Below, in pieces: positions 3,115 through 44,407 of a DNA stretch of 44,407 nt. The first letter of the stretch is position 1; each line of letters starts with the position of its first letter. The stretch lies in IMG/VR virus record IMGVR_UViG_3300010279_000003, positions 1 through 44,407 of that record; one strand, given 5' to 3'. Position numbers and translations under genes: made by a program. Origin of the DNA: a virus (taxonomy: Duplodnaviria > Heunggongvirae > Uroviricota > Caudoviricetes). The notes under the pieces were generated by a model, which ran no database searches, was not told where the DNA came from, and saw only the letters and a list, made by a program, of their open reading frames with translations.

Positions 3115-3399
3115 TTAACTATAATAGCTCGCTATTAGGTCGTCAACCTGTTTAAACGAACCAACGACAAAAACATTTGCACCACGTTTGCTCATCCGCT
3201 CGTGCTCTCGTAGCTGATGCGGGTCCGGCTTCGTGTTTTCGTCTTTCTTAACCTCGACAAACCAGACTATGCCGCCTGGGAGAATTACCAGCAGGTCAGG
3301 AGCGCCCGCTCTATTTTCGTAGGAAAGTTTACGAACGAGGCCGCCAATGGCCTCGAATTGCTCTTTTGCGTATTTCTGAATCTTGCCTTCCGGTGTCAT
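3115..3399 (-). CDS. VRR-NUC domain nuclease (PD-(D/E)XK fold)
   Basis: 94 aa with PD...EVK motif (APDLLVILPGGIVWFVEVKKDEN). Confidence 0.7.
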   Translation of the reverse strand: MTPEGKIQKYAKEQFEAIGGLVRKLSYENRAGAPDLLVILPGGIVWFVEVKKDENTKPDPHQLREHERMSKRGANVFVVGSFKQVDDLIASYYS

Positions 3400-6725: not shown

Positions 6726-6781
6726 ATCTCGATTCCTCAGTTTTTAGTTTACTCCGGGAAGCTGCCCGGCCAGTGATTAGA

Positions 6782-6810
6782 ACTATAATAGCCAACTATT
6801 CAGGTGTCAA
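6782..6810 (-). promoter_or_regulatory. Sigma70-like promoter, class A (TTGACA-N17-TATAGT)
   Basis: Read on minus strand; near-identical copy at 8922..8950. Confidence 0.55.
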
Positions 6811-8890: not shown

Positions 8891-8921
8891 TATTTATTCT
8901 CCTCTCGTTTGGTATGGGCTA

Positions 8922-8950
8922 ACTATAATAGCGAACTATTCACTTGTCAA
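8922..8950 (-). promoter_or_regulatory. Sigma70-like promoter, class A (TTGACA-N17-TATAGT)
   Basis: Read on minus strand; spacer contains GAATAGTT as in the 6782..6810 copy. Confidence 0.55.
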
Positions 8951-12378: not shown

Positions 12379-12407
12379 TTGCACACCCCAATATAATAGG
12401 ATACTAT
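12379..12407 (+). promoter_or_regulatory. Sigma70-like promoter, class B (TTGCAC-N17-TACTAT)
   Basis: Spacer ...AATATAATAGGATACTATTCA; same family found six times. Confidence 0.6.
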
Positions 12408-12441
12408 TCACTTATCGAAACGAGACAGAGGAGTGAGGGTT

Positions 12442-21268: not shown

Positions 21269-21447
21269 ACATCTCTGCTCGCCAGATAGTCACAGCGAGC
21301 TATGGCTAAGGATAAGCTACGGTATGCGCTATCGGATTTAGCGTGGGTAAACCCAGAAATCATTACGTAATACACCCCTTTATCGTTTAGAACCCAGTAT
21401 TTGCCGTTTTCGTGCATTATGTCTTTTTCTTTGAACATTTTAACCAC
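21265..21447 (-). CDS. Hypothetical protein, orphan minus-strand gene in the late region
   Basis: 60 aa; own class B promoter and RBS. Confidence 0.5.
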   Translation of the reverse strand: MVKMFKEKDIMHENGKYWVLNDKGVYYVMISGFTHAKSDSAYRSLSLAIARCDYLASRDV

Positions 21448-21467
21448 CCCCTGTTTAAGTTATCTGA

Positions 21468-21496
21468 ATAGTACCCTATTATATTGGTGTCTGCAA
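21468..21496 (-). promoter_or_regulatory. Sigma70-like promoter, class B (TTGCAG-N17-TACTAT)
   Basis: Read on minus strand; about 45 bp nearly identical to the copy at 24318..24346. Confidence 0.6.
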
Positions 21497-21540
21497 ATAT
21501 TATTTTTATGCGTTACACTGGCGATACTACGGGAGGGCCT

Positions 21541-23773: not shown

Positions 23774-24290
23774 TAAATCGCGCAGGCATTAACACCATAA
23801 AGGCCGTGTTTGAAAATTGTATTTTGCATCCTCTGGTTTGGTCCTGGAAATCGAAACGAGCAATTTCATTTTTGTATGCCTTAGAAATCTTGTACGCGTC
23901 TGCCAAATAGCGCAGAGTGAACCCTATACTGTCGACAACACCCGGTGTGATGTGCGCCACGCGTCTCCAGTCAGGAAAGTTTCCTTCTACAACATCTACC
24001 GGAAGTGTACATATAAGCGCACGATTATCGTCATAGAAAGATACACTGCCGTTGTCGTGGTTTACCTCTGCGTAGTTAAATTTAGAAGGCTCTCTCCCTT
24101 TGATGTCTATGAGAGTCCCTTTCTCAACGTTGGTCTTCACATTGTCGCAGAACAATCTATGACTGTCCGTAGACACTATCAATCCTTCAGGGTCTATGTA
24201 AAAAGCGTTCAAATAGTAGCGCACATCATTTTTAGCCCTGCATATTTTCGCCCCTACATACGCAGGGAAAGTAATTACTGTAGTAACCAT
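23769..24290 (-). CDS. Truncated beta sliding clamp (DnaN) homologue: domain II plus the C-terminal half of domain III, no domain I
   Basis: Matches to E. coli DnaN as I recall it: DVRYYLN, TDSHRL (vs TDGHRL), FPDWRRV (vs FPDYRRV), IGF..YL.D, C-terminal VLMPARF (vs VVMPMRL); own promoter and AGGAG RBS. Confidence 0.7.
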   Translation of the reverse strand: MVTTVITFPAYVGAKICRAKNDVRYYLNAFYIDPEGLIVSTDSHRLFCDNVKTNVEKGTLIDIKGREPSKFNYAEVNHDNGSVSFYDDNRALICTLPVDVVEGNFPDWRRVAHITPGVVDSIGFTLRYLADAYKISKAYKNEIARFDFQDQTRGCKIQFSNTAFMVLMPARFK

Positions 24291-24317
24291 TTATCATCTC
24301 CTGTTTAAGTTAACTGA

Positions 24318-24346
24318 ATAGTACCCTATTATATTGGTGTGCGCAA
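24318..24346 (-). promoter_or_regulatory. Sigma70-like promoter, class B (TTGCGC-N17-TACTAT) driving the DnaN-like gene
   Basis: Read on minus strand; conserved leader TTAACTTAAACAGGAG follows. Confidence 0.6.
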
Positions 24347-24399
24347 ACTATTTGTTTATATATTCCAGTTATTCCGCTCAATTGTAAATGTTGGAATAA

Positions 24400-32473: not shown

Positions 32474-33600
32474 CCCAGCATCTCCGGTGAAATAGTTAAA
32501 CGTGCGACCTCGCCATATTCGGCGCTATAAGTAATTACGTTTGCACTACGGCCCGACATCCATCCGCCGCGGGAGGCGTAGGCGTCTTTGGCCGCTAAGG
32601 TGCGGTGTTGCTCAACAATCATGTTACGGCTTTCTACAATCTTCTGGTGGTGCAGGTGGCCTACGTGGGCGTAGCTGTAAACACTCTCACCGAACGCTTT
32701 GCGGAACTTGGCAATCATAACCGGTTCAATAGCGTCGAATCGTGCTTTATGCCCGTGATGGAAGAACAGCGTAGTTTTGCCGTGTTGCACCATCTTGTAA
32801 ACATCCGGCGACGTATCGACAATCACTCGGCTGTCGTTTGAGTATAAAACCGTGAACATTTCGGCAAGCCATACGGAGCCGACAGGGTCGTGATTTCCTT
32901 GCACGATAAGCAAGCGAACATTTTTGTGCTTAACCAGCGCCATATCAACGACACGGCGTACCATACGAATCATGTAGCGTACAAGTTTCTGATAGCGGGT
33001 GTCCGCATCAAGAACATGGCGCGACTCTGGCGTAACGGCATCCAGGCTATCGAAGTGCGCGAAGTCTCCTAGCAGATTAATAACACCCGTTCCTGCGTCA
33101 GGCGCTTTCTGGAATGCTGCATCGAACCATCGAGAGAACAGGTCTTCCGCGATTTTCATATCCCAGTCGTCGCCGCTCTCGTCCGCCCATGCCAGCATAC
33201 CGAGATGAAAATCAGATACCGTGTAAAGATTGAGTAGCTTGTCGTCACGTTTGGCGCGTGCCACTTTAACAGGCGCAACGGGGGTAATCTCTGACTTCAT
33301 GCCTTCGATTACGGCCTTCATTAACTCGACCTGACGTTCTGCGTCAGTGTCGGTCTTAACCCATTGCAGTTTAGTGTTGCCGAACTCGTCCACCAGAGAC
33401 GACGTACCTTTAATCTTGTAGCCGTCAGGCACAAGGTGACTAACGTCGCGACCGTGGCCTACACCTTTCTTAGCCAGCTTCGCTTTACGGATACGGATAA
33501 CGCGGTCTGAGATTCCGTACTTACGTGCGATATCAATAATTTTTGTTCCGGCGTTCAATTCTTCCCGTAACTGTTCGTCGGTTATTTTCTTATGAGCCAT
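32470..33600 (-). CDS. HTH-domain protein fused to a calcineurin-like metallophosphoesterase (SbcD/Mre11-like motifs)
   Basis: N-terminal HTH (IIDIARKYGISDRVIRIRKAK); MPP motifs SDFHLG, GDFAHFD, GNHD, GHLHH. Confidence 0.7.
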   Translation of the reverse strand: MAHKKITDEQLREELNAGTKIIDIARKYGISDRVIRIRKAKLAKKGVGHGRDVSHLVPDGYKIKGTSSLVDEFGNTKLQWVKTDTDAERQVELMKAVIEGMKSEITPVAPVKVARAKRDDKLLNLYTVSDFHLGMLAWADESGDDWDMKIAEDLFSRWFDAAFQKAPDAGTGVINLLGDFAHFDSLDAVTPESRHVLDADTRYQKLVRYMIRMVRRVVDMALVKHKNVRLLIVQGNHDPVGSVWLAEMFTVLYSNDSRVIVDTSPDVYKMVQHGKTTLFFHHGHKARFDAIEPVMIAKFRKAFGESVYSYAHVGHLHHQKIVESRNMIVEQHRTLAAKDAYASRGGWMSGRSANVITYSAEYGEVARLTISPEMLG

Positions 33601-33639
33601 GCTTTACTTCCTCGTGTTTAGGATTTGTCCTATACTAGC

Positions 33640-33831
33640 TCACTTCTCTTTGACATTCGAGTTGCACGCCCAGATTAAAATAAATACCCACGGCAGCAGA
33701 ACCCAACCGAGAAACAGATTAGCCATGAATATCGCTAATTTAGCTTTATGGTTGCGCATATGCGCCACGAGAAATGGGATAAAATAAACTAAAACGATAA
33801 TGATTAAGAAGAACATAGTAATACCTGTCAT
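33640..33831 (-). CDS. Small membrane protein resembling the superinfection-immunity (Imm) family
   Basis: AIFMANLFLGW...W...LIWA pattern; family recalled from memory. Confidence 0.55.
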   Translation of the reverse strand: MTGITMFFLIIIVLVYFIPFLVAHMRNHKAKLAIFMANLFLGWVLLPWVFILIWACNSNVKEK

Positions 33832-33872
33832 GGGGTAGCTCCTGTTTGAGTTAACATTGTTGGTGTAAGTGA

Positions 33873-33901
33873 ATAGTATCCTATTATGTTGGGGTGTGCA
33901 A
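33873..33901 (-). promoter_or_regulatory. Sigma70-like promoter, class B (TTGCAC-N17-TACTAT) driving the accessory operon
   Basis: Read on minus strand; spacer ACCCCAACATAATAGGA. Confidence 0.6.
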
Positions 33902-33968
33902 GTAATGTGTTAGAATTATTTTGCGCCTAGTGTCGCACACGAAAAGCGGGTGGTTCCCGTCTGGCGCA

Positions 33969-34001
33969 TTAACCTTAACCTTAACCAGTAACCTCTTAAC
34001 C
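33969..34001. repeat. Tandem TTAACC hexamers (three contiguous plus a fourth copy)
   Basis: TTAACCTTAACCTTAACCAGTAACCTCTTAACC read directly. Confidence 0.7.
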
Positions 34002-34014
34002 AAAGGATTAAAGA

Positions 34015-34431
34015 ATGAAACTTTCTGATTTTTATTACGAAGCTGAGGCAGAAAAAGGCGCCCGTATGCCAATACCACTGAAAGACGGCACCGATTCAGG
34101 GGAGTGGCTGAACGTTGTTTCACCGGAGGCAGACGTTGCCGTTAAAGCTATGAGGGCGTTTACACTTGCGTACCGCGCGGCATTAGGTAAATTGAAACCG
34201 CTTCGTGATAAATGCGAGGAACTGAAAGATTTCTCGGAATACAATATTAAGATGGAAGACGCCGCGACGGACCTTAACCGCCAGTTAGCACTTGAACTGG
34301 TTAACGGTTGGAGTCTCGACGATGAATTTAATAAAGAGAACCTGAACACTCTTTTCTCACAATATAAACGCCTCGCTGAACACGTTGTTGTTTTCCACAA
34401 CGAACAGCTTCACCAATTGCAGGAAAAGTAG
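34015..34431 (+). CDS. Tail assembly chaperone (G-like)
   Basis: 138 aa directly upstream of tape measure gene. Confidence 0.55.
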   Translation: MKLSDFYYEAEAEKGARMPIPLKDGTDSGEWLNVVSPEADVAVKAMRAFTLAYRAALGKLKPLRDKCEELKDFSEYNIKMEDAATDLNRQLALELVNGWSLDDEFNKENLNTLFSQYKRLAEHVVVFHNEQLHQLQEK

Positions 34432-34436
34432 ACGCG

Positions 34437-34796
34437 TTGCTCCAGTTTGCCCGTTGGAACTTCATAACCCGCCACAAACGGCGGGAGTTTGACAGCATTG
34501 CCGACGGACATAAAGCCGCGCTAATTGCTATGGGGGTTATGCAAGACGCGCCGGAAGCAACGCAGGATACCGGGCCAGAATGCCCCCCTGAGCTATTAAC
34601 CACCTTCGAGAAGTACCGGGAAATCAAATTTACCCGCCGAGTGGATGACGACGGCATCAAGATGTACCCGCGCGAACAGTTAAGATGGTCGGATTTAGTG
34701 GCATACAGCACCGTTTCGGGCCAGAATATAGACATGTTTGAATCTGACATCATCATGAGCTTAGACGCTATTTTCGAGGGCAGAAACGATGGCTGA
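34437..34796 (+). CDS. Second tail assembly chaperone ORF (T-like), in the -1 frame relative to the G-like ORF
   Basis: Frame is open from 34380, overlapping the end of the G-like ORF; may be expressed as a frameshift fusion. Confidence 0.45.
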   Translation: MLQFARWNFITRHKRREFDSIADGHKAALIAMGVMQDAPEATQDTGPECPPELLTTFEKYREIKFTRRVDDDGIKMYPREQLRWSDLVAYSTVSGQNIDMFESDIIMSLDAIFEGRNDG

Positions 34797-42870: not shown

Positions 42871-44407
42871 ATGTCAAGCGGATGCGGTGACGTTTTAAGC
42901 CTGGCGGATTTACAGACCGCCAAGAAACACCAGATTTTTGAAGCTGAAGTTATCACCGGTAAATCTGGTGGGGTTGCTGGCGGCGCTGATATTGATTACG
43001 CTACCAACCAAGTTACTGGTCAGGTGCAAAAGACACTCCCTGCGGTTCTTAAAAGCATTGGTTTTGCCGTGGCTGATTTTAGTTTCGATTCTGGGGGTAC
43101 TCTTGCATCCGGGGACGAGGACAAGATAGTGCTCTGGCCGTTGCCGGGTGGCGATGGTCAGTACTACTCCTGGACTGGTGCGTATCCTAAGATTGTTCCC
43201 GCATCCTCGTCCCCGACAACAGGATGGAAACTTATAGACGGCTCTGCATTACGAATCGACTTGTCCGAATTTAGCGGGGCTTCTCTGGTCGGGTACTCGT
43301 ACGACGGCAGCCTAAGCACCACAAAAAGAACGGTTGCTGATAAATTAGACGATATGGTCAGCCTTTGGGATTTTCACTGCGATTCATCCGGAGATGTAAT
43401 TCAGCCAGGGGTTAGCGTTGACAGTCGTCAGTATCTACAAGCAGCTATAGACTACCTGAACGCAAACGGAGGCGGCACACTACATATACCGGAAGGTGCA
43501 TGGTATCTTAACAGCCTCAGTACAGGGGCGGTATCAGGACACAGTGGAATTATACAGCTTAAAAGTAATGTTAACATTAAGATAGACGGTACTATTAAAG
43601 TAGGGTCTGCTTTGGCCTCCTCGTCATTTAAGGTGTTTGTAGGCTTTGATAATGGTGACCCTGCAAGCTCCGGTAATCTCGATAATTGCCATATTTATGG
43701 CAACGGTACGATAGACTTTGGTAGCTATGACTTTGGTGCGACATCACAGTTACGCAACGGTATCGCTTTTGGTCGCAGCTACAACTGCTCAGTAACAGGT
43801 ATTACTTTCCAGAACGGTGATGTTACTTGGGGTGTTACCCTTGGCTGGAATGGGTATGGGTCTAATTGTAAGGTATCTAACTGTAAGTTTATTAATTTGA
43901 TACAGAGTGCTAACAATGCTGACCACAGTACCGTATATGTTAACTGTCCTTTCAGTGGTGTAGATAACTGCATATTCCGTGCGGTGAGTTCAAGGGCGCA
44001 AGTTATAGCGTGTTCGGTGGAACTACATCAACATGATACTTGGTACAGAGATTCAATTATCTCTGGATACACACGCGGCTGTTATGTGGCTTTGCATGGG
44101 GCAGAATCTGCGGGAGCGGGCACATACCTGTACAATGCTGTTGTGTCAGGGGTAATTGGTGCTATTTCCGGGCAAGCAGTAATTTTAGCCGCCGGTCCGG
44201 ATTCAACAACCACTACCCACATTAACGGGGTGTCTATCGAGAACTGTCGATTTACCGCCGGTAGTCAGGCAGGTATGTGCAGCTTCATAGACTTCTTCCA
44301 GGACGGTAACTCGAACTCCAGTCAGTACCTTATCAACCATGTAACGGTTAAAGGGTGCAGCTTCATTGTAGACCGTAGCCGGTCTCTGTCTGCGGCAATA
44401 ACCTTAA
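42871..44407 (+). CDS. Tailspike, N-terminal part with right-handed beta-helix (pectate-lyase-like depolymerase); continues at 1..752
   Basis: ATG 42871 after GAGGA RBS; repeated NCxF/NG turns (NCHIYGNG, NCSVTGITFQNG, NCKVSNCKF); frame is open to the window end. Confidence 0.8.
   Translation, partial: MSSGCGDVLSLADLQTAKKHQIFEAEVITGKSGGVAGGADIDYATNQVTGQVQKTLPAVLKSIGFAVADFSFDSGGTLASGDEDKIVLWPLPGGDGQYYSWTGAYPKIVPASSSPTTGWKLIDGSALRIDLSEFSGASLVGYSYDGSLSTTKRTVADKLDDMVSLWDFHCDSSGDVIQPGVSVDSRQYLQAAIDYLNANGGGTLHIPEGAWYLNSLSTGAVSGHSGIIQLKSNVNIKIDGTIKVGSALASSSFKVFVGFDNGDPASSGNLDNCHIYGNGTIDFGSYDFGATSQLRNGIAFGRSYNCSVTGITFQNGDVTWGVTLGWNGYGSNCKVSNCKFINLIQSANNADHSTVYVNCPFSGVDNCIFRAVSSRAQVIACSVELHQHDTWYRDSIISGYTRGCYVALHGAESAGAGTYLYNAVVSGVIGAISGQAVILAAGPDSTTTTHINGVSIENCRFTAGSQAGMCSFIDFFQDGNSNSSQYLINHVTVKGCSFIVDRSRSLSAAITL
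44285..44407. repeat. Terminal direct repeat, identical to 1..123
   Basis: Exact identity read directly. Confidence 0.9.

Follow-up and report, generated by a model that had tools for sequence, protein, structure and literature searches.

Tandem TTAACC repeats upstream of a siphophage tail chaperone gene fall in the predicted 3' tail of an int-alpA-type leader RNA

Introduction

The viral genome analysed here (IMG/VR record IMGVR_UViG_3300010279_000003, positions 1-44,407; the window denotes this whole stretch of 44,407 nt) belongs to a Kagunavirus-like siphophage (Guernseyvirinae), with Escherichia phage vB_EcoS_XY1 as its top match (98.3% over 1.4 kb). Ahead of the tail assembly chaperone gene, several copies of the hexamer TTAACC stand within a few tens of nucleotides of one another. 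What are so many copies of one short motif doing in front of a tail gene, and do they act as DNA or as RNA? The initial annotation proposed a protein-binding array or a slippage-prone tract. We examined the tract together with its surroundings, its relatives and the RNA that would be transcribed from it.

Results

The repeat tract and its genomic setting

Inspection of the sequence bore out the arrangement described initially, with three contiguous TTAACC copies and a fourth after a 9-nt gap at 33969-34001. The local features are as follows.

33640-33831, minus strand: upstream neighbour gene (ORF list), annotated as superinfection immunity in relatives
33969-33986, plus strand: tandem array of three TTAACC copies, TTAACCTTAACCTTAACC (sequence; Tandem Repeats Finder)
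33987-33995, plus strand: 9-nt gap, AGTAACCTC (sequence)
33988-33993, plus strand: degenerate copy GTAACC (5/6 matches) inside the gap (sequence)
33996-34001, plus strand: further TTAACC copy (sequence), followed by AAAGGATTAAAGA and then the ATG at 34015
34003-34007, plus strand: Shine-Dalgarno sequence AAGGA (sequence; GG invariant in 44 relatives)
34015-34431, plus strand: tail assembly chaperone gene, a 138-aa ORF (ORF list; annotation of relatives)
34437-34796, plus strand: second ORF, in the -1 frame relative to the chaperone (ORF list; second chaperone ORF in phage Golestan)
34789-37128, plus strand: tape measure gene (ORF list; annotation of relatives)

Tandem Repeats Finder reports the array with a period of 6, 3.0 copies and 100% matches. 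The 12-mer TTAACCTTAACC with at most one mismatch is found three times against 0.17 expected, a count reached by none of 100 shuffles, and the AACC density of the 44.4-kb window peaks at 33971 with five per 40 nt, the runner-up elsewhere reaching three; this excess and this peak mean that the array is not a product of chance. The tract contains a single G in 37 bases and is unpaired in both the minimum-free-energy and the centroid folds predicted from the single sequence. A telomere-like or iteron reading was rejected, since the motif clusters nowhere else in the genome.

In the annotated relative Golestan, the rightward series of head and tail genes is broken off after a putative tail protein gene by four leftward genes (hypothetical protein, polynucleotide kinase, DNA repair exonuclease and superinfection immunity). 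The rightward order then resumes with the tail assembly chaperone, the second chaperone ORF, the tape measure and the distal tail genes. The TTAACC tract lies inside the 183-nt divergent gap where rightward transcription must restart. At the other end of the chaperone ORF, GGAAAAG (34422-34431) stands immediately 5' of the TAG stop, and a -1 slip at A-AAG would give ...QEK-VDALLQFARWN..., running into the ORF at 34437-34796; a programmed frameshift of the G/GT type is likely here, although relatives annotate two separate genes. The window also carries a perfect 123-nt direct repeat at its two ends (1-123 and 44285-44407), which is a terminal repeat or else an overlap left by the assembly of a circular or permuted genome.

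A three-way-junction RNA of the int-alpA type ends one base before the tract

Relatives were collected with the chaperone protein as the query rather than with a DNA motif, which gave 25 viral and 37 metagenomic sequences carrying the element described here. A block of 47 nt on the 5' side of the repeats is conserved down to 41-44% chaperone identity. RNAalifold (16 sequences) predicts that it folds into a three-way junction, which the single-sequence minimum-free-energy fold reproduces; the first base of the TTAACC tract is the base directly after its end.

33922-33968, plus strand: int-alpA-type three-way-junction RNA, 47 nt (Rfam RF02996; RNAalifold; co-variation; minimum-free-energy fold)
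33922-33927 with 33963-33968, plus strand: helix P1 (RNAalifold, Rfam, minimum-free-energy fold)
33930-33933 with 33937-33940, plus strand: helix P2 (same sources)
33946-33950 with 33956-33960, plus strand: helix P3, with the apical loop UGGUU at 33951-33955 (same sources)

Across 44 distinct sequences, 92.4% of the cells are paired and 12 of the 20 pairs have changed on both sides. None of 500 shuffles reached the observed co-variation, and controls in which the structure was slid along the alignment are only 33-45% paired. Changes on both sides are seen at four pairs of P1, three of P2 and three of P3.

The Rfam model RF02996 (int-alpA) matches at 33920-33986 with 33.3 bits and an E value of 7e-5, aligned over its full length (1-71), and the 3' tail of the model (positions 54-71) falls on the three TTAACC copies. 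This score lies just below the curated gathering threshold of 35.8 bits. Two relatives that have an identical junction and a single TTAACC linker (L005 and L008) score 36.6 bits, above the cut-off, so it is the extra hexamers of the window that cost the difference. The junction strings CUAG (33927-33930), CGAAAAGCGGG (33940-33950) and CCCGNCUG (33956-33963) are all present and are invariant or nearly so in the 44 relatives. A covariance model built in this analysis scores the window copy at 97.7 bits and has this one match only, with no second copy in the window. Three other Rfam families (CRISPR-DR55, UPD-PK2 and bxd_4) gave E values of 6.7-9.5, far below their cut-offs, and were dismissed as chance. 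By sequence and predicted structure, and not by genomic context, the element is a borderline-scoring member of the int-alpA family.

Three relatives (L170, L174 and L184) do not have the three-way junction yet keep a leader rich in CAACCA, so the motif may also serve another purpose. Their leader (in the 100 nt upstream of the chaperone gene) reads GCAACCAACAAAUCAACCAUAGCGGGUUAAAAAUG; pairing of its AACC with its GGUU could enclose the ribosome-binding site in a small hairpin.

The transcript is predicted to start at the first base of the fold

Two elements precede the RNA.

33897-33902, plus strand: TGCAAG box, 8-9 nt 5' of the -10 element (upstream sequences of 65 related loci)
33908-33916, plus strand: extended -10 element TGtTAGAAT (sequence; spacing to P1 conserved)

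The 6 nt between the -10 element and helix P1 are kept in all relatives, and in most of the unrelated viral int-alpA copies P1 likewise begins 6-8 nt after a near-consensus -10 (TATAAT or TAGAAT). On this conserved spacing the transcript is predicted to start near G33923, at about the first base of the fold. The repeats were initially placed in an intergenic region, and they do lie in a divergent one; the tract is, however, 3' of the conserved -10 element and within the predicted transcribed leader.

Distant relatives keep the TGCAAG box in the form TGCAA(G/C). It lies too near the -10 element to act as a sigma-70 -35 element, and may be the recognition site of a phage factor or a piece of an upstream promoter's transcript. 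The software-predicted promoters annotated in SETP3 and fBC-Eco01 were set aside, as they are on the opposite strand and have no bearing on the rightward transcript start. A search of 33500-34200 gave no site resembling an intrinsic terminator, and no U-run follows P1 in the lineage of the window; a terminator or attenuator was thus rejected.

The window also holds two families of promoter-like repeats that have the palindrome GAATAGnnnnCTATTA in common.

21440-21509, 24290-24359 and 33845-33914, plus strand: promoter-like family 1 (in three divergent intergenic regions; runs on into the TGCAA box)
3117-3146, 6781-6810, 8921-8950 and 12389-12418, reading on the minus strand: promoter-like family 2 (TTGACA-N17-TATAGT, with the palindrome in the spacer)

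An element of the same GAATAGnnnnCTATTA family was called a promoter by PHIRE in fBC-Eco01, and the two families probably represent a class of phage promoters or operators.

The P3 apical loop is complementary to AACC sites in the tract

The conserved unit in 44 leaders is not TTAACC but AACC(A), which is complementary to the GGUU of the P3 apical loop (5 nt). The array supplies three such partners (33971-33974, 33977-33980 and 33983-33986), and two sites can be aligned with those of relatives.

33983-33987, plus strand: site 1, AACCA, the candidate 3' pseudoknot strand for the loop at 33951-33955 (alignment; homologous to the single site of relatives)
33996-34002, plus strand: site 2, TTAACCA, directly 5' of the Shine-Dalgarno sequence and, like site 1, complementary to the P3 loop (almost without variation in the family)

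Two known types of leader motif were considered for the tract and rejected. The translational enhancer 'epsilon' of T7 gene 10 has the consensus UUAACUUUA; only the window has a string, UUAACCUUA, that matches it at 8 of 9 bases, and the relatives have UUUCCUUUAACC, ACUACCAACC and the like, with AACC alone as the conserved core. Hfq sites of the (A-R-N)n type are not conserved in relatives either, AACC again being all that is.

When the loop (alignment columns 33-37) is set against site 1 (columns 65-69), 93.6% of the cells are paired in the 44 leaders. The pair 37-65 is U-A in 36 sequences and C-G in seven, with one non-standard case that is an alignment shift in L167, and the pair 33-69 is U-A in 27, C-G in three, U-G in two and non-standard in 12; the extended pairs 32-70 and 38-64 change on both sides as well. 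GGUU in the loop goes with AACC in site 1 in 36 sequences, and GGUC with GACC in seven to eight. Lineages with a 7-nt loop lengthen the helix by matched changes, with CGGUCU facing AGACCG (L162-164), AUGGUU facing AACCAU (L171), UUGGUUA facing UAACCAA (L178) and UUGGUUG facing CAACCAA (L185). This co-variation of loop and site 1 indicates that the GGUU of the P3 loop pairs with an AACC a few bases past the junction to form a pseudoknot.

The degenerate GTAACC copy does not follow the loop, since it stays UAACC, with a C-A mismatch, in all eight sequences that have a GGUC loop. At site 2, the positions T79, A81, C82, C83, A85, G87 and G88 are invariant in the 44 sequences; the pair 37-80 is U-A in 36, C-G in five and C-A in three, and the site has changed to GACC in only five of the eight GGUC-loop sequences. 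The short GGUU/AACC helix is weak, at about -3 kcal/mol for the bare duplex, and because the P3 loop has only 5 nt, at most four pairs are sterically likely. The helix-only statistics for loop-site pairing in the phage lineage are moderate, and the loop changes in this lineage may stem from few independent events.

The same two complementarities are found across the int-alpA family

The int-alpA RNA motif (RF02996) was found by comparative genomics (Weinberg et al., 2017; PMC5737381), and the main text of that paper does not discuss its function. The Rfam entry gives it as an sRNA with no assigned role, and a literature search on 'int-alpA' returned the family in a table, or the words as a description of gene order, with the function of the RNA undiscussed.

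Bacterial genomes, one per species, were scanned with a pattern, which gave 88 classical copies, mostly from Betaproteobacteria and Aeromonas with some from Enterobacterales. In two copies checked in detail (L264 and L196; 59-64 bits in Rfam), the order is Phage_integrase (P4-type), RNA, variable ORF and Phage_AlpA. The P3 loops of the bacterial copies are unrelated in sequence to that of the phage, and each has a complementary site 8-12 nt past P1 (CCUUCA/UGAAGG, CCCUG/CAGGG, CAGCCU/AGGCUG, CCGUG/CACGG and CCCUA/UAGGG). A permissive DNA pattern scan of viral contigs returned mostly chance matches, which were filtered with the covariance model; in the viral contigs above the Rfam cut-off, the P3 loop also has a match of 5-7 bases in the Shine-Dalgarno region (UACCUC/GAGGUA, CUCAUCA/UGAUGAG and UCUGGU/ACCAGA).

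These complementarities were evaluated by permuting loops, with one representative per distinct loop (n = 59) to limit the bias from shared ancestry, which permutations ignore. In the site-1 zone (from P1 to the ribosome-binding site), the copies' own loops gave a duplex energy of -7.24 kcal/mol as against -4.01 ± 0.23 kcal/mol for permuted loops, and in the Shine-Dalgarno zone -7.25 as against -5.36 ± 0.21 kcal/mol (equalled or bettered by 0 of 5000 permutations in each case). Two coding-region controls showed no significant difference between own and permuted loops in the same 59, and an earlier permutation test on 87 bacterial copies agrees. These results show that the family's apical loop has two complements, one shortly past the junction and the other in the ribosome-binding region.

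The window copy shares with classical int-alpA the three-way junction, the junction strings CUAG, CGAAAAGCGGG and CCCG(C/U)CUG, and a P3 loop that complements a site a few bases after P1, with the ribosome-binding site and start codon about 30-45 nt farther on. It differs in several respects. Classical copies sit in integrated islands between a P4-type integrase and a variable ORF with alpA, whereas the window copy stands directly 3' of a promoter, at the head of a lytic-type siphophage's tail operon; its neighbours are the superinfection-immunity gene (minus strand) and the tail assembly chaperone, and the other viral copies are likewise without the integrase-alpA context. The element of the bacterial islands lies internally, 6-12 nt past the stop codon of the integrase gene instead of behind a promoter, so a role tied to the 5' end of a transcript is not general. 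The window loop has 5 nt against about 9 in classical copies and pairs GGUU with AACC, where classical loops are pyrimidine-rich and anti-Shine-Dalgarno-like with sites such as GAAGG and CAGGG. Finally, the TTAACC array takes the place of the classical U-rich linker, and the score is just under the cut-off.

Several individual loci merit description. The ORF that immediately follows the RNA varies greatly among the 88 bacterial copies, and in most of them it has no Pfam match. The Aeromonas island that holds one classical copy (L196, 2451-7017) is integrated beside tmRNA and also encodes C4 antisense RNA and isrK. At L039 (4561-4690), a GC-rich hairpin and a U-run, together resembling an intrinsic terminator, come after the tail of a copy that scores 50.7 bits; this copy may be a free-standing small RNA or an attenuator version of the motif. 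An IMG/VR contig that is otherwise related to Jersey-like Salmonella phages (L010) carries a ColE1-type RNAI at 739-841 on the minus strand (RF00106, 96 bits), which suggests plasmid sequence or a chimeric assembly.

The third hexamer is most likely a recent slippage product

Every relative whose tract was read has one or two TTAACC copies. XY1 has two, with flanks otherwise identical to those of the window, and two are also present in L003 and L147; one-copy Kagunavirus genomes have TTTCCT, TTTCCC, TTTTCC, TTCACC or TTTACCA in the place of the first unit, in a leader of the same length. A 121-nt query covering the RNA element and the tract matches 452 phage records, none of them above 95.0% identity, and therefore none has the three-copy sequence; the seven best, XY1 included, align over 115 of the 121 nt, which corresponds to a 6-nt gap. 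Among these 452 matching records, judged by alignment, the perfect tandem triple is specific to this genome. Escherichia phage ZCEC5 (L187, MK542015.1) has at 200-213 an independent 7-nt duplication, TTTACCA twice, at the position where the window is expanded.

The one-copy leaders, with their substituted spacer and unchanged length, make the second copy look substitution-born, and the third is most likely a 6-nt insertion by replication slippage. In the proposed sequence of events, a spacer hexamer would have taken on the sequence of the second TTAACC in a few relatives while the leader kept its length, and slippage would then have added the third (+6 nt). From the copy-number variants and the ZCEC5 duplication, the linker between P1 and the pseudoknot partner tolerates about 6 to 15 nt. 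After the insertion, the AACC at 33977-33980 keeps the ancestral 8-nt distance from P1 and the AACC at 33983-33987 the ancestral 27-nt distance from the start codon, and this retention of both distances may be why the insertion was tolerated.

The tract resembles simple-sequence slippage tracts in its perfect head-to-tail hexamers, in a copy number that varies between near-identical genomes and in an independent duplication at the same spot, but differs in having only one to three copies, the second seemingly arising by substitution in a spacer of constant length. Of the two initial proposals, the slippage-prone tract is thus supported by two copies in XY1 against three here, by the one-copy relatives and by the ZCEC5 duplication. 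Absence or variability of the repeat in relatives had been expected to count against the initial reading; it applies to the tandem array but not to the AACC sites.

Discussion

We favour, as the more probable explanation, that the TTAACC tract acts as RNA and not as a DNA site, forming the tail of an int-alpA leader element that supplies partners for the P3 loop and has been expanded by slippage. The mRNA that carries the tail chaperone, tape measure and distal tail genes, from an operon that has to restart past four leftward genes, would begin with this element, and the tract would be the element's single-stranded 3' tail. The GGUU of the P3 apical loop would pair with an AACC just past the junction in a pseudoknot, and the leader would hold several copies of one short motif because each complements this same loop. 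With the loop on an upstream site, the ribosome-binding site would be free; with the loop on the downstream site, it would be crowded or masked. The element could thereby set or switch translation initiation of the chaperone gene, although this on/off reading of the two sites is one that we infer. Extra copies would serve as spare upstream partners, and their effect is presumed to be near neutral or a slight shift toward the open state.

Four other explanations were weighed. The best placed of them, though improbable, is that the tract is a mere unstructured C/A-rich spacer, acting as a ribosome standby site or translation enhancer, in which the likeness to the loop is unimportant and the copies are neutral slippage. 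The free variation of spacer length and sequence among close relatives would fit, as would the scarcity of G (1/37) and the CAACCA-rich leader that L170, L174 and L184 keep without a junction. Such a spacer would not, however, account for complementarity kept through two-sided changes both in the phage lineage and in the whole family, where the coding-region controls are flat.

Somewhat less probable still is that the fold and its pseudoknot protect the 5' end of the mRNA from decay or direct its processing, the AACC sites serving only to lock the fold. Stem-loops at the 5' terminus are an established means of stabilising E. coli mRNAs, and in the window and many viral copies the fold begins at the predicted first transcribed base. 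This explanation is harder to reconcile with the internal position of the element in bacterial islands, 6-12 nt after the integrase stop codon, and it leaves the second complementary site at the ribosome-binding region unexplained.

We also think it unlikely that the repeats are an array for a single-strand RNA-binding protein, which would nucleate on the fold and spread to the ribosome-binding site in the manner of T4 gp32. The T4 gene 32 operator consists of a 5' pseudoknot and an unstructured leader of more than 40 nt with UUAAA/UAAA repeats, followed by the ribosome-binding site (PMC535899), and the window leader has the same layout of a folded 5' element and an unstructured stretch that carries short A/U-rich repeats and extends into the ribosome-binding site. 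The G-poor, predictedly unpaired tract and the AACC-rich leader of relatives without the junction are what such a protein might require. However, the T4 repeats are bound cooperatively by gp32, whereas those of the window complement the loop of their own fold, and the two leaders have no sequence similarity. A protein site would have no need of the co-variation seen between the motif and the RNA loop, the sites of other int-alpA copies differ widely with each tracking its own loop, and no candidate protein was identified.

Least likely of all, and very improbable, is a DNA-level operator or iteron array to which a phage or host protein would bind. The presence of direct repeats close to promoters, in a divergent intergenic region, would suit it, but the unit number is not conserved (one to three copies among near-identical genomes), the genome has no second motif cluster, the co-variation is with an RNA loop, and the tract lies 3' of the conserved -10 element inside the RNA family model. 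The same observations, with AACC tracking the RNA loop in a tract past the predicted transcript start and in the Rfam tail, speak against the protein-binding array proposed initially.

On its own, the hexamer array is a minor, strain-specific slippage polymorphism. Its interest is as a pointer to an int-alpA-type RNA. The leader query matches 452 Guernseyvirinae-type records, and the match always stands ahead of the chaperone and tape-measure genes; for annotators, repeats in this intergenic region are better taken as RNA features than as operators. The complementarity of the loop to two places provides a concrete hypothesis, testable by mutation, on how the int-alpA family acts. A wider proposal, which we put forward as speculative, is that RNAs of the int-alpA type act as translational switches with two states, in which the one apical loop pairs either with a decoy site just past the junction, leaving the ribosome-binding site open, or with the second site at the ribosome-binding site, closing it. 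Phages of many lineages would place such a switch where transcription of an operon begins, and the number of decoy copies (TTAACC x3 in the window) would tune the set point. If true, such a two-state switch would provide a mechanism for an orphan RNA family and would account for a layer of tail-gene control in Guernseyvirinae.
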